Source: an uncultured Gammaproteobacteria bacterium (GTDB lineage Bacteria > Patescibacteriota > Patescibacteriia > Veblenbacterales > UBA10138). From it: a DNA stretch of 64,000 bases. Location: contig CAYVOI010000001.1 of NCBI GenBank assembly GCA_964453605.1, positions 804,095-868,094 on the forward strand, written 5' to 3'. How positions within the stretch are numbered: position 1 is the stretch's first letter; each line of letters opens with the position of its first letter. The notes beneath the pieces are model-generated. The model saw nothing but the letters and a program-made list of their open reading frames with translations. It ran no database searches and was not told the DNA's origin. Shown here piece after piece: positions 51,568 through 61,541 of the stretch. The position numbers were made by a program, and so were the translations under genes.

Positions 51568-51642
51568 CGCGGGGTGGAGAAGTGGCATCTCGCCTGGCTC
51601 ATAACCAGGAGGTCGTGGGTTCGAATCCCACCCCCGCAACCA
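51568..51642 (+). tRNA. Initiator tRNA-fMet (anticodon CAT) with the C1xA72 mismatch, CCA encoded.
   Basis: CGCGGGG-TG-GAGA-AGTGGCA-TCTC-G-CCTGG-CTCATAA-CCAGG-AGGTC-GTGGG-TTCGAAT-CCCAC-CCCCGCA-A-CCA. Very similar to E. coli tRNA-fMet (CGCGGGGTGGAGCAG...CTCATAACC...CCCCCGCAACCA). Confidence 0.85.
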
Positions 51643-53140
51643 AATTTTTTTCTTGGGCAGTAGAAGCCCTGTTAAGCTCAAAGATTAGCCCCAGCTTGGC
51701 GGTTCCAAAACCTTGACCGTGGCGATACCGCACTCCCTCAGGAAAAACCAGCTTTTGGAACTGGTACTTGAGGGGGTCCGGCACGCTACGCCACCCAAAG
51801 GACAGGTTAGTCAGGAACTGCTCACCAAACGACAAGGCGCCGGCCAAGTCGTGTTTTTGTATATTAGCTTCACTCATGGAAATCTTAACGGCGGCTAGCT
51901 CATTGTCCACCTGCTGTTTACGTGCGATAAACTCCTCTTTAGTGTACGAACCCTCCTCGCGCATTTCATAAATCCGCTGTCTGCGCTCCTCCAGCACGTC
52001 AAGCTGCCGCTTGTAGGTTTCAGCTTCAGAATTGTAGGCTCTGTACTTCGCCTGCCAAACTGTTATCACCTTGGCCTTCAAAGCCTCAATGAAGTCAGGC
52101 CTGGCTGAAACAGCTCGCAATGCCCTATCAAAATCGTTCTCTACGTCTTTTTTGAGTAAACTGGCATAGAGCAACTGACAACCTGGGGTATAACAGCGGT
52201 AGTAGGCAAACCGCTTGCCTCGACTGCTGCTCCACGCGCCGGTCAGTGGCCCACCACAAGCATCGCAGAGCGCCGTACGGCGTAACGGAAAATCAGGGTG
52301 CGTACGCAATCGCTTCGGCGAGTGATTGTAGCCTCGATCTTGACGTATAAGCTGCACTCGCTGAAATTGCTCGTGAGTAATCAACGGCTCGTGCTTGCCC
52401 CGTATCTCTTTTCTGGTCCATGGATTCACGAGAATACCTGCGTAGTAGGGGTTCTGTAACATCCGATCGACAAACTGGATGTTTGTTTTTGTTTTACGAT
52501 ATCTGCTCAGCCCCCATTCCTCTAGCATGGCGGCTATAGCTTTCTGCGTGTACAAACCAGTTAGATACTCCTTAAACGCCCGACTAATCAGCGGCCCTGC
52601 CTCAGGGTCAATGGTATCCGGCGTCGTTTTACGCTCACCGCGCCGCTTTGAGCCCGATGACAAATACCCTACGGGCGGCTTCCACGGCCAAAAGCCCTGA
52701 TCAACCTTTTTGATAAGGCCATCAGTACATCTAATCTTACGAATATCATTCTCAAACTGCGCTGCGCCTGCCAGCACTGTTTCTATAAACTTCTCTGCTG
52801 GGCCAGAGCCAATCGGCTCCGTAACAGAATGCAAGGCTACGCCGTAGTCAGTCAGGATTTTACGCACGCTAAAGTGATCCTCAGTATTGCGGGCAAACCT
52901 ATCCAGACGTAACACGACAAAAGCCTGCGCCTTGCCCTTGTTTTTCCGTAGGTACTCTAAGGCACGCAGGAACTCAGTTCTATTCGTCGTTTTGGCAGAC
53001 TCGCCTTCATCTCTAAAAATCGCCACTACCTCAATACCCTTCTGATCACAGTAGGTACGACACTGCTGCTCCTGAGACTCCAAAGAGGTGCCCTTGACCT
53101 GCTCATCGCTTGATACCCTTGTGTAGATTATGCCTCGCAT
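51599..53140 (-). CDS. Large serine recombinase (resolvase/invertase N-terminal catalytic domain, recombinase domain, zinc ribbon and coiled coil). Its 3' end overlaps the 3' half of tRNA-fMet.
   Basis: MRGIIYTRVSSDEQ (catalytic Ser in YTRVSS). LRLDRFARN. C-x2-C...C-x2-C ribbon. The C-terminal ...VGFEPTTSWL is the antisense translation of the tRNA T-arm. Confidence 0.9.
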   Translation of the reverse strand: MRGIIYTRVSSDEQVKGTSLESQEQQCRTYCDQKGIEVVAIFRDEGESAKTTNRTEFLRALEYLRKNKGKAQAFVVLRLDRFARNTEDHFSVRKILTDYGVALHSVTEPIGSGPAEKFIETVLAGAAQFENDIRKIRCTDGLIKKVDQGFWPWKPPVGYLSSGSKRRGERKTTPDTIDPEAGPLISRAFKEYLTGLYTQKAIAAMLEEWGLSRYRKTKTNIQFVDRMLQNPYYAGILVNPWTRKEIRGKHEPLITHEQFQRVQLIRQDRGYNHSPKRLRTHPDFPLRRTALCDACGGPLTGAWSSSRGKRFAYYRCYTPGCQLLYASLLKKDVENDFDRALRAVSARPDFIEALKAKVITVWQAKYRAYNSEAETYKRQLDVLEERRQRIYEMREEGSYTKEEFIARKQQVDNELAAVKISMSEANIQKHDLAGALSFGEQFLTNLSFGWRSVPDPLKYQFQKLVFPEGVRYRHGQGFGTAKLGLIFELNRASTAQEKNLVAGVGFEPTTSWL

Positions 53141-53486
53141 AGGTAATACCTAAAAGGGACGACCTGGTTGTCCCAACTCCACTAGCCCAAGAAGGATTAG
53201 CTTTGTTGGCAGGCCGCCCCTTTAGAGCAACAACGCCAATAAAAAACTTCTTGGATTCGCCTTGGGAGTGGGACAACACCATAAGTATAGCAAAATATGC
53301 CCTACGGCACAATACTAACGTCATTTTGGTTAAGGTAGGCCTCGATTACTATCTCAGCCAAAGCCAATAGCACCTCCTCAACCTCCGTAGAGCCAGTGGC
53401 AGACCTTAGATCAATTGTTGGGCGTAGTGCCGGTGCTTGCATAAGTTAGCCCCAAAATAGCTTTGACAATGAATAAAACGAGAAAC

Positions 53487-53846
53487 TTACGTAAAGTTTT
53501 GGTTTTTCCTGCGGTAGTACGATGCCAGGGCTATCTGCCGACGGCGTTCTGGATGTGCTACAACCCACTTCAGCCAACCCCTATACTCGTTTACAGCCCA
53601 ACGTGGCCTAGAGGCCCTTGTACGGCGTTTGTAGGCCAGCACGGATTGATACCACTGCTGGTAGTTGGCCTTTATCCACCGTGCGGTCTTTTTCTGCCGG
53701 CAGCGTATACAAAAGTGGCTATGTAGGTCGGCATAGGTAGTGGTCCAGGGGTACAAGACTTCTGTGCGACCACAGCGACCAAAGCATTCTCTTGTGACTT
53801 TCATTAACACATCGCGCATAGGGATACCAAAAATATCATTTGCCAA
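53487..53846 (-). CDS. Small basic Cys/His-containing protein (119 aa). Possible Zn-ribbon DNA-binding regulator of the element.
   Basis: ECFGRCGR...HSHFCIRC plus a very Arg/Lys/Trp-rich C-terminus. It lies directly downstream of the repeat array at 53840-53966. Confidence 0.4.
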   Translation of the reverse strand: MANDIFGIPMRDVLMKVTRECFGRCGRTEVLYPWTTTYADLHSHFCIRCRQKKTARWIKANYQQWYQSVLAYKRRTRASRPRWAVNEYRGWLKWVVAHPERRRQIALASYYRRKNQNFT

Positions 53847-53966
53847 ATGTCAAAACATAGTTTTGACATTTATCAACCAACAGGCATCCAGGCTTGCCAA
53901 AATGCCACCCTATAAGGGTGGTGGCATTTGGCAAGCTGGTTCTGAATGCCATAGCGCTATTTGGCA
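53840..53966. repeat. Iteron or operator-like array: four TTGCCAAA(A)TG motifs (two direct, two inverted) organised into two long palindromes.
   Basis: The first is a perfect palindrome 53845-53871, AAATGTCAAAAC-ata-GTTTTGACATTT. The second is near-perfect, about 53893-53935, CTTGCCAAAATGCCACCC-tataa-GGGTGGTGGCATTTGGCAAG. A further inverted copy lies at about 53959-53966. Confidence 0.5.
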
Positions 53967-53968
53967 AC

Positions 53969-55777
53969 CTAAAATGGCAGCTCATCTTTGGTATGGCCGT
54001 CGCCCCGTTTAAGGAAGTAGAACCTAGTTGATGTTCCGCCGTCCCCCTTATCAATACCCTCCTTGCGTAACTGGCTGAGGGTTTTTGAGCAAATTACGCC
54101 AGCTGCGACTAACTCATCCCGGGCCGCCCTCATAGAAGTGGAGCCAGCTACATCCTTTAGGGCCTTTACCAACTGCTTGTGTGAGAGCCCACTGTCATCC
54201 TTGCCAAGGATTTCTAGCAGTCGCTCTTTAGCTTCTTGAGCGGCATAGGCTTCATCATCATATTCACCCCCGCCCTCAAAATTCACCCTACCTGGTTCGG
54301 ATATGACTTTGACGACGAACGGCTTGAGCAGCTCATCGTCTCTCTGCTTAGTCTGCACGAGTACCAACTGTCTAGTATTCCCCTCGTCCTCCTTACTGAC
54401 TATCGCAAGGTGAGAATCAACCATCCCCAAGATATCACTGGACCCCCGCATGGCCTCAGCCTGCGCCATTATGTCGGTTACCTTAATCTTAAATGTGCCC
54501 TGCTTCCGGTGGTGATGTGCCAGCACAACCGTCATACCGGCTTCGGTAAACTTCCTAAGCGCCAGGTAGACCTGGTTCATAGCCGTGGCGCTGTTCTCGT
54601 CTTGATTGTGAATGCGCACCAAGGTGTCGAACATGATGAGTCCAATGCTCTTACGTTTTGCCTCAGCCAACAGTGCCTCTGCCTGTTGTTCGTTGTCAAC
54701 CCTAAAACCATCCCCGATGTGGTAATAGATTGGGAGATCGAGTTGGTCGGTCAGTAACTTGATGCGTCGGGCTAATCTGTTCTTGTGGTTCTCCTCATCC
54801 ACGATCATCACGGCCTGCTGTTGCGTTCCATATTCACCAAGTACCTTAGTGCCTAGGGCACAGGCAATTGCTATGTGGCTCAGCAAGAATGACTTATACA
54901 ACCCGGGCGGGCTTGAAATCACCGTAATTCCCCCCTTTGGTATCAAACGATGCACGGTCCATTCGGGCTCAGCAACTTCCATCAAGGCCAGGTCTTGAAA
55001 GGCCACGGCTTCACCTAGGGGGCGTGTCTGGTGGCTACTAGTAGCTCTAGGCTGATTGAGCTGTCGAGCTGCTATGCTTTCGAAAGTACGACGCAATTCC
55101 TCTGTAGCCAAAGGCGGGCTACAACGCGAATTCCACGCCAAGGCAGCGTCCCAGGCTGCGGTAGGCCACAGTTCCTGCGGTAAGGCGTGAACCAGCTCAC
55201 CGATAAAGCTGGCGGCCGACATATTACGTTCACCCTCACCCACACCTTCTGCTATATGTTCCCACTTTTTCGCTGTAGCAGGTCGAATAGATGACAGTTC
55301 GGGCAATGGCTGAGGATCCGTTTCGCCAGGGGGTATAAGCCACTCGTAGGCTTTGCCTGACCTATGAACGGAAGGTGGTACGACAATGTAACCACCATCG
55401 CCCCGGACATCGGTAAGTTTCACCTTATTCGTGCTGTTAGGAACCGGGTGACCGGGCCATTGGTAAATGAAGTGCTGGCCACCACCGCCGGTCTGCGAGG
55501 TAATAGTTTGTGGGTAGCAGGTAAAGTCGCCATTGCGCTCGACGTCAATCGCTACTATGCCTGATACCTTGCCTGTAGCTATACCAATATTGGCCTCTGG
55601 GTACCGCCCCCACCACTGATTGATTTGCTCCTCGCTCGCTTTTTCGGTTTGGTATAGCTTCCAATCTACCAGGGGAGCTTTATCCCCGCCGACGGGGAAA
55701 GGACTCCAACCGATGCTGCGGTAGTAGAGGGCCCAATCCATCATTTTCTTGTGTGACGCCGAAGTCATAGTATTCAT
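53969..55777 (-). CDS. Bifunctional primase-polymerase (Prim-Pol N-terminal domain) fused to a RepA/DnaB-like P-loop ATPase (AAA_25-like). Replication protein of phage or plasmid type.
   Basis: N-terminus LYYRSIGWSPFPVGGDKAPLVDWKLYQ...GIATG (Prim-Pol pattern). Central P-loop ISSPPGLYKSFLL and Walker B IVDEE. Confidence 0.8.
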   Translation of the reverse strand: MNTMTSASHKKMMDWALYYRSIGWSPFPVGGDKAPLVDWKLYQTEKASEEQINQWWGRYPEANIGIATGKVSGIVAIDVERNGDFTCYPQTITSQTGGGGQHFIYQWPGHPVPNSTNKVKLTDVRGDGGYIVVPPSVHRSGKAYEWLIPPGETDPQPLPELSSIRPATAKKWEHIAEGVGEGERNMSAASFIGELVHALPQELWPTAAWDAALAWNSRCSPPLATEELRRTFESIAARQLNQPRATSSHQTRPLGEAVAFQDLALMEVAEPEWTVHRLIPKGGITVISSPPGLYKSFLLSHIAIACALGTKVLGEYGTQQQAVMIVDEENHKNRLARRIKLLTDQLDLPIYYHIGDGFRVDNEQQAEALLAEAKRKSIGLIMFDTLVRIHNQDENSATAMNQVYLALRKFTEAGMTVVLAHHHRKQGTFKIKVTDIMAQAEAMRGSSDILGMVDSHLAIVSKEDEGNTRQLVLVQTKQRDDELLKPFVVKVISEPGRVNFEGGGEYDDEAYAAQEAKERLLEILGKDDSGLSHKQLVKALKDVAGSTSMRAARDELVAAGVICSKTLSQLRKEGIDKGDGGTSTRFYFLKRGDGHTKDELPF

Positions 55778-55939
55778 TGACTATCAGTGCTTAATAAATC
55801 CACCCCGGTGAAACGGTTCGCGGCGAGCCGTCGCACAGAGGCGGATGCATGCCGCGAAACAAAAAACTGGAGGGTGACTCCAGTGTAAACGCTGCGGTCC
55901 GAGCAGTCGTAACCGATGATATTTTTTTATCCGTAACTT

Positions 55940-56581
55940 TTATCCAGTGCGCAGATTTCTAACCCTCATGGAGGGGGGAAGTCTGAGTTTTTTGGGATAG
56001 TCGGAAACAATTTTTTTTATGTGTCCATAGTCCAAATCATCCCCAAACTCAGACAAAATAATCGCAGCTATCTCTTTTATGGTTTTCCCTTTTCTCGCTA
56101 AATTATATACTGCCTTATCGCGTTGCAATGTCTGCCAAGGTTTATTTATTAACCTCCGCCCCCTCAGATCAGAGTACTTATAGGTAGACTTGATGTGCTC
56201 AGTAACGGCCTCACCGTTATTTTGTTCGTCATCTCCAGCCAGTCGAATACGCTCACCTTTATCGGGGTCAATTGAGCTACTACCGGTAAGCACATATTCC
56301 TCTAAAAACCAAGTCCATCCCCTATGCAGCTTAAATTTTTTCCTCAACTCAGCGATGTCATTGGTAAAGCTAACGTCATTCATCATGCGCTCAAGGTAAC
56401 TATCATAGGATTCATCATTTCCTCTTTCATACTCGTCTGGGTTAATTGACCGATCAATATTCCAAGTCACTCTTATTTTATCAACTTCAACGTCAAAAAA
56501 GGGATTGGCTAAAAGTATCTGTACCCTTGGGTTGGATACCGCTCGTTGATCCCTGTGTGGCCATTTTAATTCGCCGCGCAT
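55940..56581 (-). CDS. Hypothetical protein (213 aa) with a C-terminal helix-turn-helix-like segment. AT-rich gene.
   Basis: ORF only. KGKTIKEIAAIILSEFG resembles an HTH recognition region. No family recognised. Confidence 0.45.
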   Translation of the reverse strand: MRGELKWPHRDQRAVSNPRVQILLANPFFDVEVDKIRVTWNIDRSINPDEYERGNDESYDSYLERMMNDVSFTNDIAELRKKFKLHRGWTWFLEEYVLTGSSSIDPDKGERIRLAGDDEQNNGEAVTEHIKSTYKYSDLRGRRLINKPWQTLQRDKAVYNLARKGKTIKEIAAIILSEFGDDLDYGHIKKIVSDYPKKLRLPPSMRVRNLRTG

Positions 56582-56791
56582 GATTGTATTTTAGCTCAAA
56601 AATAGTATAATACAACCACAACTAAATAATTCTAGCAGTAGCCTAAACTCAGCCGCCTGGCTGGGCATGGCTCAAAAGCCTTTCCAGATATTAAGCTCTC
56701 CGTTCAGAGCCCTGGAAAGGTCATGCGCCGAAAGGTGCATGGGGTCGCAAGACTCACTGGCGGGGAGCTTTGTGTATTCCTCTCACAATCT

Positions 56792-57655
56792 ATGTACAAA
56801 TTGTTAACAATTCTTACCCTTGTGATGCTATTAGGAGCGGGCTGCGCCTCACCGGTTTCAGAAGAAAACCCTTCAATTGGTCTAGTCAATCAGCAACAGG
56901 TATCAAACGAGCCAGCAATTGGGTCAACGTTATTTCAAAATCCACAAACAGATAAAAAAATCCAGGCACTTCAAGAACAACTTGATGCTACTAAGAAAGA
57001 GCTTGACTCGCTGAAAAAAAACAGCGCAGACAACAATAACACCTCGGCGGTGGTGGCAAAGTGGCGGCCGCAAGTAGCACTAATTACATGTAGCTGGTTT
57101 TACGCGGGTACAGCCCAATATCTAGTTCAAAGTGGTTCGGGTCTGTTATATAGGGTTCCACCAACCGATACAATTGTTGTGGCAACAAATCGTCATGTGT
57201 TCACTGATCCGTATGGTAATAGCCCAACAAAATGTTCAGTAAAGTTTCCCGATGATGTAAACTTTTTCGATGTATCGAGTGCTACGCCAAGTGAAAACGG
57301 TACGGACTTTGGTTTACTCGGAATAAAGCAGCCCGATGAATATCTGATAAGTATTGCTTCCCGTTTAGACAGCAAATCTTTTCTATGTATAGATAAACCG
57401 GAAATTGGTGATAGTGTTGTTATACTAGGTTACCCTGTTAATGGTTCATCAACAGATATTACCGCAACCGAAGGTATAATATCCGGATTTGACGGTGATT
57501 ATTATATTACGTCGGCGAAAGTTGAACACGGAGACTCAGGTGGTGCAGCAATATTAACAAGTAAGAATTGTTCGCTGGGATTACCAACCTCAGTCGTTCC
57601 AGGACAGCTTGAGTCGTTGGCACGAATCCTGCCTTGGCAAATTACTGCGAAATAA
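56792..57655 (+). CDS. Lipoprotein with a coiled-coil segment and a C-terminal trypsin-like (S1) serine protease domain.
   Basis: Lipobox LLGAGC after MYKLLTILTLVML (the track ORF starts earlier at 56723). Coiled coil KKIQALQEQLDATKKELDSLKK. Protease motifs TNRHV (His) and EHGDSGGAAIL (GDSGG Ser). Confidence 0.7.
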   Translation: MYKLLTILTLVMLLGAGCASPVSEENPSIGLVNQQQVSNEPAIGSTLFQNPQTDKKIQALQEQLDATKKELDSLKKNSADNNNTSAVVAKWRPQVALITCSWFYAGTAQYLVQSGSGLLYRVPPTDTIVVATNRHVFTDPYGNSPTKCSVKFPDDVNFFDVSSATPSENGTDFGLLGIKQPDEYLISIASRLDSKSFLCIDKPEIGDSVVILGYPVNGSSTDITATEGIISGFDGDYYITSAKVEHGDSGGAAILTSKNCSLGLPTSVVPGQLESLARILPWQITAK

Positions 57656-57728
57656 CAACCTATCCAAAATACCTGGGGCGAAAGTCCCGACCTAGCGGCG
57701 AGCTTTGTGTATTTAGTGGGGTACGACT

Positions 57729-58493
57729 ATGAAAAAACTATTATTTATTCTACCGGTTTTGATTCTGGTTGGTGCTGGCTGTACTGAGCAGTCTCTCGGC
57801 ACTCTGGATCACAACACAAATGGAATAAGCAATGCTTTAACCCATAGTATTTCTATACAACCCGGCACAGTAGGTTATGAACTAAGTCACCAATCGGACT
57901 ATCCGAGGAAGCAAAACACATCAATAGAAACTGCTACACCAGTGAGTAAATCAACGAGACAAACTATAAAGAAAGTTTACAAATCACCAACTGTACCCGC
58001 CACAGATAACGACGTTTACTGTAATGGTTCATCCTGGACTCCTTGCCCACCTGGACAACAGTTTTACTGCCCACCAGCCGGCAGTGCCCAATGTATAACG
58101 CCACAAGCCATCCAAGCGCCAACGGTAAGTTACCAAGAGAGGTGTATCGAGGACGGCATGAAGTTAATAAAATATCCGGACTATGATCGGTTAAATAAGC
58201 AACAGAGCGCATTGACTAAAGTATCCGAGGGGAAGAAGGCGGACATCACCGCCGACGAGTGGGCTGCACTTACATCGACACAACTTAATGCTATCAATAG
58301 TGGCGACCTAAAATTACTTGAATCTGCTGGTGATGAAGTCGCAGCTGGGGAGAAGTATGCAGATGTCCAGCTTGGACAAATTTCAAATATGACTGAGCAG
58401 ATTGGGGTGATGTGTGGCGCAATCTCAACAGAGGGTCAGATGGTATATGAATTACAGCAGATACAGCAAGCTATAAACAGATTGTCACAATAG
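57729..58493 (+). CDS. Lipoprotein (254 aa) with a Cys-rich segment and a C-terminal coiled coil. Hypothetical.
   Basis: Signal plus lipobox MKKLLFILPVLILVGAGC. YCNGSSWTPCPPGQQFYCPPAGSAQC. Confidence 0.55.
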   Translation: MKKLLFILPVLILVGAGCTEQSLGTLDHNTNGISNALTHSISIQPGTVGYELSHQSDYPRKQNTSIETATPVSKSTRQTIKKVYKSPTVPATDNDVYCNGSSWTPCPPGQQFYCPPAGSAQCITPQAIQAPTVSYQERCIEDGMKLIKYPDYDRLNKQQSALTKVSEGKKADITADEWAALTSTQLNAINSGDLKLLESAGDEVAAGEKYADVQLGQISNMTEQIGVMCGAISTEGQMVYELQQIQQAINRLSQ

Positions 58494-58526
58494 GGTTTAC
58501 TTATTTCACTCTTTTACCACAATCTT

Positions 58527-58790
58527 ATGGGTTACATAGAAGAAAACGGCGAGTACAAGTACAAGCGAACATCGGTTGACGCTTGGGGGTTTGTCATATA
58601 CCTCATACCAGGTGTTATCCTCTACTTCAGTTTCAATCAGTCACTACTCGCCATGTTGGTTTGGTTGGTGGGGTTAGTGGCTTACGGCATATTTTACTGC
58701 ATTGATTACATTGGATTTGTCGGTAGAGACATACATGAGATAAGAAAAACGTTAGATACTATAGCAAATGGTTTGAAGGATAAAAGTTGA
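58527..58790 (+). CDS. Small two-TM membrane protein (87 aa).
   Basis: ORF with two hydrophobic helices. Follows the two lipoprotein genes. Confidence 0.4.
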   Translation: MGYIEENGEYKYKRTSVDAWGFVIYLIPGVILYFSFNQSLLAMLVWLVGLVAYGIFYCIDYIGFVGRDIHEIRKTLDTIANGLKDKS

Positions 58791-58862
58791 GTAGTCTAGG
58801 TGAGTTATCAAAAAACGAGCCTTTGCTCGTTTTTTGATAGCCTCATCGAGGCTACTAAAACA

Positions 58863-59525
58863 TCAGCTAAACGGTCGGGCGCTACCATCACCTGAGTATG
58901 AGAGGTTCTGCATATCCCATAATAGATACGGTATAGCAGACCTCTGCTCATTTGTTGAAACAGAAGTCACTAGATCGGAGATATTACGTGAAAATTCTGA
59001 TCTCCCCTTACCTATAGCCTCGTCTACTGAGTGATCTTTTAGAAGTGAGGTCATGATTAAATTAGATGGACCGAGAAATAGATCTGCTAGTTGGTCCACC
59101 TCAGGACGCGTCCTCTTCTCGAGGGTATAACTCAGGATAAAAGGTTGTTGATAGCCAATATATGCGAAGGCACCTTTAGCTGTACAATTTGGCCCTAAGA
59201 TACTCATTGAACTACAAGCTAATGCATATACAATTTTACCTTCGAGTAAATTCTCATTATCATCAGATACCACCAAAGGTTCGTTATCGTGACCCGTAAC
59301 ACACGTTTCATTGCCATGCCCGTTTAAAAAAACAAGCGACGGCCGCTGTTTAATCAACATACTTTCGAAAGTTTTTCTATTTGCTTTTTTCTTTTCCAAA
59401 TCTAGAACAGTCTTACCCTTCTGCTCTGCAAAATCGACAATCTTTTTTGCCCAAGTTGATAAGTAACGAGTCGCATAATCGTAATCAGGTCTAGTAACAA
59501 GTAAAATACCTCTCATATCATACAT
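58863..59525 (-). CDS. Hypothetical protein with a clan-CD (caspase, metacaspase or CHAT-like) His-Gly...Ala-Cys dyad signature (220 aa).
   Basis: Beta-strand GILLVTRP. LVFLNGHGNETCVTGHD has His in a GHG context after a hydrophobic strand. GKIVYALACSSMS has Cys in an A-C after a hydrophobic strand. The spacing is consistent with the caspase fold. Very AT-rich. Confidence 0.5.
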   Translation of the reverse strand: MYDMRGILLVTRPDYDYATRYLSTWAKKIVDFAEQKGKTVLDLEKKKANRKTFESMLIKQRPSLVFLNGHGNETCVTGHDNEPLVVSDDNENLLEGKIVYALACSSMSILGPNCTAKGAFAYIGYQQPFILSYTLEKRTRPEVDQLADLFLGPSNLIMTSLLKDHSVDEAIGKGRSEFSRNISDLVTSVSTNEQRSAIPYLLWDMQNLSYSGDGSARPFS

Positions 59526-59739
59526 CTTGGTTTTGATACATGAATCCTTCTTTAAGCGCTCTTAGGTAATTTAATTGAACCTCAATGATCTTTTTACCAA
59601 TTTCATCACCTATCCGAATATGCTCAATGATCTGCTCCTTGCTCAAGTCACCATGATCACCAAAAGAAACACCAACCCCTTCCGGCGTGGCTTCAATTCG
59701 AGCTATCACTATCTCTTTTACCTCTTCTTCCCTAGCCAT
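59518..59739 (-). CDS. Small acidic protein (73 aa), translationally coupled to the caspase-like gene.
   Basis: 8-nt overlap with the downstream gene. No family recognised. Confidence 0.45.
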   Translation of the reverse strand: MAREEEVKEIVIARIEATPEGVGVSFGDHGDLSKEQIIEHIRIGDEIGKKIIEVQLNYLRALKEGFMYQNQDV

Positions 59740-59741
59740 AC

Positions 59742-59927
59742 CTATATAAAATTCAACTCGATGAGTTTATTAAATATTTCCTGACCCGAGGGAGTCTCCG
59801 CCTTAATCTCTAAATAAGCAGCATTCCAGGTTATGGGTCCTTTGTCAGGTAAAACCAAGATGACCTCATCCCTTGTGCCAAGGGGTAAGTTCGAGTATAC
59901 CTTCAGAAACCTATCTTTATTCTCCAT
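59742..59927 (-). CDS. Small protein (61 aa), first gene of the three-gene module.
   Basis: The stop is 2 nt before the next start (TAG gt ATG). No family recognised. Confidence 0.45.
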   Translation of the reverse strand: MENKDRFLKVYSNLPLGTRDEVILVLPDKGPITWNAAYLEIKAETPSGQEIFNKLIELNFI

Positions 59928-60300
59928 CGTAGGTTTATCTAAGTATCCTTCCTAGTCTCACCGCAGCCGTTATTATGTAACATTATTATAGAGGTTTTAT
60001 GAAACACTGTCAATCAAATTTCTGCTCGTAGAGTTTGGGGGATTTACAAAAAAATCACAAAATTCCGTCTCACGTCCTCCGGATGAGGAGGGCTGAAAAG
60101 ACGATCGTTTTCATTTTCCACCCACCAACGAGAGGGTTCCAAAATTTTTAGACAACTTTACAACTTAGACCGCTGGTCTGAGGTCACAGGCCTGGAATAT
60201 AGCCTGAAAGGCTAGTATCTCCTGGACTAAGGCGTTCCAGTTTGCTATCATTAGGTCAACCAAATTAAAATCTTCCACATAGACCTAGGTACCTAGGCCA

Positions 60301-61095
60301 ATGTCACCAACGCCCCGCAAGGGGCGTTTGTGTTATGATAGCTGTATGGATTCGATAACTGAAAAAAATCAACAAGCATACGATGATCGCGCCGATGCAT
60401 GGCAGGCGGCTTTAAGCACCAATGTTAGCCATTGGTATTTAGAGAAACCTGCAATGGTTGATCTGCTGCCGCCAACGCTTGTGGGCAAACGGGTGCTCTG
60501 TATAGGTGTCGGTACGGGCGACGAACTAGAGGAGATCTTTCAACGTCACCCCGATTCTGTTGTCGGAATCGATATGTCCGTGAAACTCATGGACATAGCA
60601 AGGGTTAAATTTCCAACTACGGAATTTCAGCAAATGGACATGCTACAGCTAAGATTCCCGGATAAAAGTTTTGACTTCATATACTCAAGCTTAACATTTC
60701 ACTATACAAGAGACTGGGACATACTTCTCGGAGAAGTAAATCGCGTGCTCGTGGATAATGGCGAATTACTTTTTTCTACGCACCATCCGGGGTATTGGGG
60801 TCTCAAGCCAGCGACAGGCAATACTTTTGTTAATCCCCGCGAGGTGCGCACGACCGAGCACACGGCGATTTTACCTGGGCAGGTAGGGATTACTTATTAC
60901 AATCACAAAAATGAAGAAGCCATCAAAGATGCTGTCGAGCATGCTGGTTTTAAGATAGAAGAGGCTTTCGTCCCACTTGTTGTTGAAGTTGCGCTAAGCG
61001 ACTTACCACCTGAACACATCGAGGGTTATAAGGTTTTAAAGACAAGGAACGAGAAAACTCCACTTTTTTATATAGTGAAAGCTCAAAAATTGTAA
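60301..61095 (+). CDS. Class I SAM-dependent methyltransferase.
   Basis: Motif I VLCIGVGTGDELEEIF. Post-I acidic residue (GIDMS). Motif DFIYSSLTFHY. Confidence 0.8.
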   Translation: MSPTPRKGRLCYDSCMDSITEKNQQAYDDRADAWQAALSTNVSHWYLEKPAMVDLLPPTLVGKRVLCIGVGTGDELEEIFQRHPDSVVGIDMSVKLMDIARVKFPTTEFQQMDMLQLRFPDKSFDFIYSSLTFHYTRDWDILLGEVNRVLVDNGELLFSTHHPGYWGLKPATGNTFVNPREVRTTEHTAILPGQVGITYYNHKNEEAIKDAVEHAGFKIEEAFVPLVVEVALSDLPPEHIEGYKVLKTRNEKTPLFYIVKAQKL

Positions 61096-61464
61096 GCATC
61101 ACTCGAATCCGTACAATCGCTATCGTTCATTGCAGCCATTGAGTTGGAATCACAATTTTTCCGGGGCCTTTCATAATCCTGGTTGCAATAACGTCCACGA
61201 TGCCCAACCAAAGCAAAGCGCCTCACCGCATGGTGGGGCGGTTTGCTTTCTGGTGTGCTAGAGTGAGCGAGTGAACTGCTTCACTCGCGTTGGGATTCGA
61301 ACGCCGGAGCGATGCCCAGCCAGCTGGCGGGGCCGCGAGGCGGTGGCTAGCCCGACGAGCACGGCGGTGCGAGGAGAGGCAAAGCCGAAGCCCCTAAAAT
61401 AAAACCTTTCACTGGATAGTCTGGACGTAGCAAGCATCATATGGTATAAGCAATAGGCAACTAT

Positions 61465-61541
61465 GGCAGGGTAGCTCAGTTGGTTAGAGCGAGGGACTCA
61501 TAAGCCCTAGGTCGTGGGTTCGATTCCCACCCCTGCTACCA
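61465..61541 (+). tRNA. tRNA-Met (anticodon CAT; elongator Met or Ile2 type), CCA encoded.
   Basis: GGCAGGG-TA-GCTC-AGTTGGTTA-GAGC-G-AGGGA-CTCATAA-GCCCT-AGGTC-GTGGG-TTCGATT-CCCAC-CCCTGCT-A-CCA. G1-U72 wobble. One A-G at 31:39. Confidence 0.8.

Follow-up and report, generated by a model that had tools for sequence, protein, structure and literature searches.

What could two very small proteins and a caspase-like protein, encoded by three tightly packed genes, be doing together? The question is raised by a locus in a 64,000-nt stretch of DNA (hereafter the window; contig CAYVOI010000001.1 of assembly GCA_964453605.1, positions 804,095 to 868,094) from an uncultured bacterium assigned by GTDB to Patescibacteriota. 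A preliminary description of this locus had singled out genes for proteins of 61, 73 and 220 amino acids (hereafter the trio), read two motifs of the largest product as the hallmark of clan-CD (caspase-like) peptidases, found no family to which any of the three could be assigned and proposed an undescribed defence or toxin-antitoxin-like system. The computational analysis presented here bears out the motif reading and the lack of a nameable family. It also indicates, from sequence comparison, that the trio, far from being peculiar to the window, is a large cross-domain family that spans the bacteria of the Candidate Phyla Radiation (CPR) and the archaea of DPANN. The proposed function is weighed against alternatives below.

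The 220-residue protein is a predicted minimal clan-CD protease

The two motifs of the 220-aa protein are LVFLNGHG at residues 63–71 and IVYALACSS at residues 98–106. His70 is located in the N-G-H-G turn that follows strand 64–68 (LVFLN), while Cys104 comes after Ala103 and strand 98–102 (IVYAL). The histidine precedes the cysteine and each follows a hydrophobic strand, which is the clan-CD arrangement. The protein was found to have the α/β/α sandwich of the caspase/hemoglobinase fold, which spans its entire length as a single domain with nothing appended. Neither a signal peptide, nor a hydrophobic N-terminus, nor a transmembrane (TM) segment is present. His70, Gly71 and Cys104 are invariant in all 303 relatives compared, Asp144 is conserved in 301 of the 303, and the number of degenerate members is zero. 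Since the dyad residues and Gly71 are invariant and no relative is degenerate, catalysis appears to be under selection. From topology and motif position we predict that the 220-aa protein is a minimal cytoplasmic clan-CD cysteine protease with a His70–Cys104 dyad; for the near-invariant Asp144 we infer only that it is a candidate S1-pocket residue.

The nearest structural relatives of the protein are gingipains and CHAT proteases, the gingipains RgpB and Kgp sharing 12–17% sequence identity with it. Searches with Pfam, NCBIfam, PADLOC and PHROG models gave no match for any of the three proteins. At E≤1 the only Pfam hit of the 220-aa protein was DUF6727, which fell below the cutoff and was set aside as uninformative; PF12770 (CHAT) and PF00656 (Peptidase_C14) did not match at this threshold in Pfam and NCBIfam. 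The family profile did not retrieve gingipains from PDB sequences at E≤10, and there was no match to Pfam Peptidase_C25. By these searches the 220-aa protein and its relatives form a new sequence family, outside the C25, C14, CHAT and C11 sequence families. It comprises 1,227 clusters at 50% identity, nearly all of them bare proteins of ~215 aa; among the best 150 representatives almost all are 200–220 aa long and have a single match stretch. We also considered whether the protein is the same as CPR-C4, a "novel CPR protease" whose structure is, according to the title of the paper, remotely homologous to vasohibins (PMC9108980). This was ruled out, as the family profile retrieves no such entry among PDB sequences.

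Conservation of the trio and its hosts

Relatives of the protease were sought by a pattern-based scan of 185,579 genomes, one per GTDB species. At least 65 loci with confirmed relatives were found. Among the matches listed, homologs of the 61-aa and 73-aa proteins are encoded directly upstream of the protease gene in about 60 of the 65 loci, with order and strand kept and with junctions that are mostly −4, −1, −8 or a few nucleotides. The loci without a full trio are either truncated by contig ends or belong to the most divergent members. Two outcomes had been named beforehand as speaking against the module, a predicted non-caspase fold with His and Cys far apart and small open reading frames (ORFs) not conserved together with the 220-aa gene, and neither was observed. 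Because all three ORFs have homologs and their order and strand recur in so many genomes, the arrangement is far beyond chance. In addition, the pairwise divergence seen in each of the three proteins correlates with that seen in the others (Spearman 0.54–0.68). We conclude from these comparisons that the three genes are, to all appearances, passed on together as a unit, both in CPR bacteria and in DPANN archaea.

By record titles, which are submitters' labels, 26 of the 65 loci come from CPR/Patescibacteria, 21 from DPANN (Woese-, Nano-, Pace-, Micr- and Aenigmatarchaeota) and 18 have generic or other titles. A neighbour-joining tree of the concatenated trio, calculated without support values, placed a large DPANN clade apart from a CPR clade. 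In the same tree, the DPANN-labelled loci L017 and L038/L056 nest among CPR, and oddly labelled metagenome-assembled genomes (MAGs) fall inside either clade. The pattern would fit a long history within each of the two radiations and an occasional transfer between the domains. With 65 loci confirmed, among the matches listed, in 185,579 species genomes, occurrence of the trio is patchy. A viral origin was considered and rejected: a scan of IMG/VR, limited to the same kind of pattern search, turned up no viral relative, and BFVD yielded only remote clan-CD folds with 8–12% identity.

The two small partner proteins

The 61-aa protein is soluble and is predicted to adopt a compact globular fold of α-α-β-β-α-α topology (predicted local distance difference test score, pLDDT, 93.7). 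Comparison of the predicted fold with solved structures revealed no relative, and no DNA-binding, known inhibitor, β-grasp or other tag-like fold was recognized. Residues F7, P15, W34 and E40 are invariant in the family and R19 is nearly so. In 49 of 60 loci the C-terminus ends in one shared column of the alignment, and its residues are hydrophobic. With a mean pairwise identity of 0.44, compared to 0.36–0.37 for the other two proteins, this is the most conserved member of the trio.

The 73-aa protein is soluble and, as had been noted in the preliminary description, acidic (isoelectric point, pI, 4.8; net charge −6.3). Its family is more variable, with R14, G27 and G48 invariant. Across the loci the median pI is 5.3 for this acidic partner and 8.7 for the typically basic protease. 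The maximal 19-residue Kyte-Doolittle hydropathy of the two small proteins is 0.65 and 0.69, so neither contains a TM-like segment; both have conserved amphipathic C-terminal helices. Neither family gave a credible match when its profile was searched against PDB sequences and Pfam. A scan of 33 members of each family gave just weak matches to unrelated domains of unknown function (DUF3892 in 2/33, DUF7713 in 4/33), which we consider uninformative. No ribbon-helix-helix (RHH) or helix-turn-helix (HTH) regulator was detectable in either protein by profile searches or, for the 61-aa protein, by fold comparison.

Alignment of the two family profiles with hhalign matched residues 22–53 of the 61-aa family to residues 22–53 of the 73-aa family with a score of 19.9. 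A column-shuffled null gave 10.0 ± 2.1 with a maximum of 17.9, none of 150 shuffles reaching the observed score, and a reversed control gave 8.3. As the score exceeds that of every shuffled control, the two proteins probably share a core and are distant paralogs, a relationship that is suggestive and not proven.

The 73-aa profile also matched the designed double-psi barrel 7dww (E 7e-4). This was dismissed as a chance match, since it is composed of two internal-repeat matches of E 2–3 each. The resemblance lies between profile residues 42–62 (gDe.GkkIi.vq..fLr.l) and the 7dww half-repeat EDDVGKNIVRMDEELMRLL; probably fortuitous, it is the only sequence lead on the 73-aa fold.

Locus layout and expression signals

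Coordinates of the genes and of other features are collected in Table 1. On the coding strand, gene 1 ends with ATA TAG, and 2 nt (gt) separate it from the ATG of gene 2. The TGA stop of gene 2 lies inside ATGTATGATATG, resulting in an 8-nt overlap with the start of the 220-aa ORF; with Met4 as the true start, a 1-nt gap would replace the overlap. The three-gene module with coupled junctions described initially is thus present in the sequence. Given the overlapping or tight junctions and the translational coupling, the three proteins should be made in fixed proportion.

Upstream of gene 1 there is a promoter-like site that agrees with the σ70 consensus at every position, and the distance from the end of its −10 hexamer to the start codon of the 61-aa ORF is 58 nt. 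Downstream of the protease gene, a perfect inverted repeat reads TATCAAAAAACGAGC cttt GCTCGTTTTTTGATA. Lying between the protease gene and a convergent gene, it has the look of an intrinsic terminator that serves both directions. The convergent gene encodes an 87-aa protein with two hydrophobic stretches. With its own promoter-like site and terminator-like hairpin, the trio has the appearance of an autonomous transcription unit served by one promoter. The 1-kb bin 59001–60000 has a GC content of 0.395, the minimum of the window, most of which is at 0.55–0.64; the trio had been said to have the lowest GC in the window, and this proved correct.

In the protein collection searched, the 61-aa sequence is present in Logan gene calls only, while the 73-aa and 220-aa sequences are present from NCBI as well. 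The deposited genome therefore probably lacks an annotation for the 61-aa gene, which is the best conserved of the three.

Table 1. Positions of the trio, its expression signals and features of trio-bearing loci
Feature	Sequence	Position	Strand	Remark
Gene 1, 61-aa ORF	window	59742..59927	(-)	read from the sequence
Gene 2, 73-aa ORF	window	59518..59739	(-)	read from the sequence
Gene 3, 220-aa ORF	window	58863..59525	(-)	read from the sequence
Promoter-like site, TTGACA-17 nt-TATAAT	window	59985..60013	(-)	12/12 σ70 consensus positions; sole 12/12 site in 58400-60400
Perfect 15-nt inverted repeat, 4-nt loop	window	58806..58839		3' of gene 3; A and T runs on either side
87-aa protein gene	window	58527..58790		convergent
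Two apparent lipoprotein genes	window	56723-58493		co-directional
Prim-Pol/PriCT/AAA_25 replication protein	window	53969..55777	(-)	
Large serine recombinase	window	51599..53140	(-)	
Left tRNA-Met(CAT)	window	51568-51642		brackets region; differs from right copy
Right tRNA-Met(CAT)	window	61465-61541		brackets region; differs from left copy
Trio and 210-aa ORF	L067	7538-9877		between rplE and rpsZ
Zinc-type S14 gene	L067	9692..9877		absent from source gene calls
715-aa primase-helicase fusion	L002	3417-5561		directly upstream
~400-bp repeat copies	L015	1070-1530, 2893-3320, 7832-8110		
~400-bp repeat copies	L018	1376-1827, 3217-3612		

Genomic contexts

In the window the trio adjoins, within a low-GC segment, genes for a large serine recombinase, a Prim-Pol/AAA_25 protein, a Trypsin_2 lipoprotein and a methyltransferase. 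The region from 51568 to 61541 looks like an integrated element, and the mobile-element setting proposed at the outset is supported to that extent by the recombinase, the Prim-Pol/AAA_25 gene and the drop in GC. We asked whether the bracketing tRNA-Met genes could be an att duplication; they are different tRNAs with only the T-arm and the 3' part of the acceptor in common, and the idea was abandoned. The 3' end of the recombinase ORF overlaps the left tRNA gene by ~44 nt. Two tiny ORFs lie between the recombinase and replication genes, and the GC of the 56–61 kb segment is 0.40–0.46. The two apparent lipoproteins, encoded in the same low-GC segment, have lipobox-like N-termini (LLGAGC and LVGAGC); they are a Trypsin_2 serine protease of 310 aa and a 254-aa protein without a family match.

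Elsewhere the trio was found in unrelated surroundings. In a groundwater Patescibacteria contig (L067) it is located, together with a 210-aa ORF, between rplE (L5) and rpsZ (S14) of the ribosomal spc operon, as an insertion of ~2.2 kb with lower GC and on the same strand as the operon. The 210-aa ORF was considered as a second protease and rejected, as it shows no similarity and no Pfam match. The GC dips at the insertion sites in the window and in this contig point to acquisition. In locus L068 the trio is inside a glycosyltransferase cluster, and in L069 its neighbours are genes for a glycosyl hydrolase and for two-component regulators. L015 and L018, which are contigs of a single MAG, have in common a 1,240-bp segment of 98.4% identity that holds just the trio, with differently arranged flanks. 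A sequence of ~400 bp occurs around the trio in both contigs in several copies (94–98% identity), one copy in L015 being directly upstream of the trio segment; it may be a small gene family, a MITE-like element or the product of assembling strain variants. The closest homolog of the window trio (54% identity), in the Magasanikbacteria locus L002, is preceded by a fusion of an AEP-TOTE primase with a ResIII/DEAD helicase that matches the Pfam TOTE conflict system model with E 1e-73; it echoes the Prim-Pol near the window trio.

Beyond the trio itself, no flanking cluster is present in more than 4 of 64 loci. The 147 flanking ORFs were assigned to 126 Pfam families. Those that recur are MNT-type nucleotidyltransferases (5), AAA_14/DUF4143 (5/4), ResIII/DEAD helicases (3), NYN (2) and recombinases (2); a TOTE primase, a DNA methylase and many housekeeping genes are also among the flanking ORFs. 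Some 10–15% of flanking ORFs match PADLOC models, mostly candidate systems with generic domains, a proportion for which there is no background comparison. Judged by these contexts, the trio behaves as a cassette-like, horizontally mobile unit placed in unrelated surroundings. Spread as an integron cassette, an idea taken from PMC9668308, was not supported: inverted repeats resembling attC do not recur around the trio in five loci, a search made without a dedicated attC model.

Possible functions of the trio

We tentatively favour the reading that the trio is a self-contained mobile conflict cassette, either a protease-based tripartite toxin-antitoxin-like module or an abortive-infection module; this may well be so, although we stop short of calling it probable. 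The conservation of His70, Gly71, Cys104 and Asp144 argues for it, as does the maintenance of the three genes as a unit with correlated divergence. The absence of any other widely shared neighbour is cassette behaviour, and the same can be read from the varied contexts (an integrated-element-like region, the rplE–rpsZ insertion, glycosyltransferase clusters) and from the recurrence of a discrete trio segment in two contigs of one MAG. Promoter-like and terminator-like signals of its own, the recurrence of conflict-type genes and of several PADLOC candidate-system models among neighbours and the opposite charge of the acidic partner and the basic protease point in the same direction. Finally, small proteins encoded beside caspase-like proteases act in defence (PMC12642450; PMC7159879).

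In such a cassette the small proteins would bind the protease and hold it inactive or limit its targets, in the manner of a trans-acting pro-domain or an antitoxin. As the protease has no regulatory domain, control would most plausibly reside in the two partners, perhaps in the form of a heterodimer of paralogs that masks the active site. The balance might be upset by infection, by stress or by loss of the cassette or of the element, which would set the protease free; the free enzyme would then cleave cellular or invader proteins, leading to growth arrest. R19 of the 61-aa protein or R14 of the 73-aa protein could serve as a basic P1 residue docking into an S1 pocket with Asp144. Such docking would presumably resemble inhibition of gingipains by their prodomain, a likeness that we offer as a lead and not as a result.

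Several points weigh against a conflict cassette. None of its components matches PADLOC, Pfam or NCBIfam models, and the protease is without a sensor or regulatory domain, unlike every characterised defence caspase or CHAT protein. The predicted fold of the 61-aa protein is neither DNA-binding nor of a known inhibitor type, and its being the best-conserved member of the trio is unusual for an antitoxin. To our knowledge, protease toxins are not an established class of toxin-antitoxin systems. The loose enrichment of neighbours in conflict genes has no background control, and many neighbours, including those around some copies of the trio, are housekeeping genes. The defence or toxin-antitoxin-like nature suggested in the preliminary description is not established.

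The trio may instead be a module in which one or both small proteins are latent effectors that become toxic or membrane-active after site-specific cleavage by the protease. Precedent exists in small proteins encoded just upstream of caspase-like proteases and cleaved into pore-forming toxins (PMC12642450), and strict co-conservation and translational coupling of the partners with the protease would suit such a scheme, as would the invariant or near-invariant arginine and the amphipathic C-terminal helix of each. Yet no EACC1, Trypco or CATASP model of Pfam or PADLOC matches them, a TM-like segment is lacking where EACC1 has a conserved TM helix (PMC7159879), their size is half that of EACC1, a compact globular fold is predicted for the 61-aa protein, and a sensor-less protease leaves no obvious brake on constitutive activation. 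On balance we consider this unlikely. Less likely still is a role outside conflict, in a regulatory or maturation protease complex that serves the episymbiotic lifestyle of CPR and DPANN and to which the small proteins would contribute as adaptor or specificity subunits. That CPR or DPANN is indicated by 47 of the 65 record titles, with oddly labelled MAGs nesting within these clades, speaks for it, and so do the same-strand copies in ribosomal or cell-envelope glycosylation clusters, the strong conservation of the 61-aa subunit and the largely separate DPANN and CPR clades, which fit long residence per lineage. Against this stand neighbourhoods that are not conserved, patchy occurrence, the signs of acquisition in GC content and the location of the window trio on an integrated-element-like region.

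Two further possibilities concern what the protease acts upon. In a mobile-element switch, for which ImmA/ImmR-type protease-repressor pairs provide an analogue, it would cleave a regulator, encoded by the element or by the host, and thereby govern whether the integrated element is induced, transferred or maintained. The window trio is indeed within ~7 kb of the serine recombinase and Prim-Pol/AAA_25 genes in a low-GC segment, and recombinase and primase genes are near a few other copies. Within 4 kb of most copies, however, there is neither a recombinase gene nor a replication gene, some copies are in core operons, and a DNA-binding signature, HTH or other, was found in neither small protein; we regard such a switch as improbable. 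The enzyme might also ligate instead of hydrolyse, as the clan-CD enzymes legumain/butelase and glycosylphosphatidylinositol (GPI) transamidase do, with the 61-aa protein and its fixed C-terminus as donor or tag. A simpler account of the hydrophobic C-terminal residues is that a core helix ends there, tag-like folds such as the β-grasp are not seen, gingipain and CHAT hydrolases are closer structural matches and targets are without any evidence, making tagging the most far-fetched of the schemes considered. A broader proposal, which we put forward as speculation and think unlikely, is that the trio is an autonomous proteolytic switch of a kind not seen before, which would be confined to ultra-small episymbionts and passed back and forth between their bacterial and archaeal radiations. 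In it a sensor-less protease would be steered by a heterodimer of paralogous mini-proteins of new fold, for immunity or addiction or for transpeptidase tagging based on the 61-aa protein.

CPR and DPANN account for much of microbial diversity, yet the majority of their genes have no characterised function and the defence systems known from them are few. The trio is compact (~1.1 kb), very widespread, annotated as hypothetical or not at all, and common to two domains. If it is the conflict cassette that we favour, protease-gated immunity or addiction extends to the smallest known cells, and a caspase-like enzyme can be controlled without a fused sensor. If not, the trio marks a conserved proteolytic function peculiar to episymbionts. 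In either case a minimal 220-aa protease would be a useful structural reference for clan CD.

Comparison with known systems

Gingipains (MEROPS C25; RgpB with its prodomain, PDB 4ief) are secreted multidomain proteins with a signal peptide, a prodomain, an Ig-like domain and a C-terminal domain (CTD). The 220-aa protein, in contrast, is a bare predicted cytoplasmic domain without signal peptide, covalent prodomain, Ig-like domain or secretion CTD. The two partners are encoded separately, and their fold is unrelated and unmatched.

The CHAT proteases SAVED-CHAT (8tl0) of CBASS (cyclic-oligonucleotide-based antiphage signalling system) and TPR-CHAT/Csx29 (7y83) of the type III-E Craspase are fused to SAVED or TPR, and it is nucleotide signals or target RNA that activate them. 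The protease of the trio has no extra domain and no CHAT model match, and CBASS or CRISPR genes are not conserved nearby. A SAVED, TPR or STAND sensor or adaptor is neither fused to the protease, among its best 150 representatives, nor conserved as a neighbour.

Staphopain–staphostatin and SpeB–Spi are pairs in which a cysteine protease is co-transcribed with a dedicated cytoplasmic inhibitor; the enzymes are secreted and papain-like (clan CA) and the inhibitors are β-barrels or propeptide-like. The trio resembles them as an operon of a cysteine protease and small partner that likely silences the protease inside the producer. It differs in that its enzyme is of clan CD and cytoplasmic by prediction and its partners are of an α/β fold without match.

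The layout of type II and tripartite toxin-antitoxin systems, a compact operon with small genes upstream and tight junctions, is found in the trio, and so is their distribution, which is patchy, in variable contexts and on mobile elements. Omega-epsilon-zeta is a tripartite toxin-antitoxin operon of small-small-large gene order with a kinase toxin. The trio shares with it this order, tight coupling, an apparent promoter of its own, location on mobile elements as well as at scattered chromosomal sites, and patchy horizontal spread. The putative toxin of the trio, however, is a clan-CD protease and not a kinase, no RHH or HTH is detectable in its small proteins, and these look like paralogs.

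In EACC1-caspase and Pepco/Trypco-protease two-gene modules, cleavage of the small protein unleashes toxicity (PMC12642450), and EACC1 has a single conserved TM helix (PMC7159879). The trio has two small partners where these modules have one, and its partners are about half the size of EACC1 and have no TM helix. They match none of EACC1, Trypco and CATASP, a distinction drawn from Pfam and PADLOC scans, at E≤1 for the window proteins. EACC1/Pepco proteases carry Avs/STAND, diversity-generating retroelement (DGR) or other sensor fusions and the systems are enriched in multicellular bacteria, whereas the protease described here is unfused and the trio resides in CPR and DPANN. The literature on caspase-like proteins in CPR or DPANN yielded no description of the trio. 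Modules of a protease and a small partner were already known; what is new here is that the partners are novel and two in number, that the catalytic domain is bare, and that the distribution has its centre in CPR and DPANN and extends across two domains of life.

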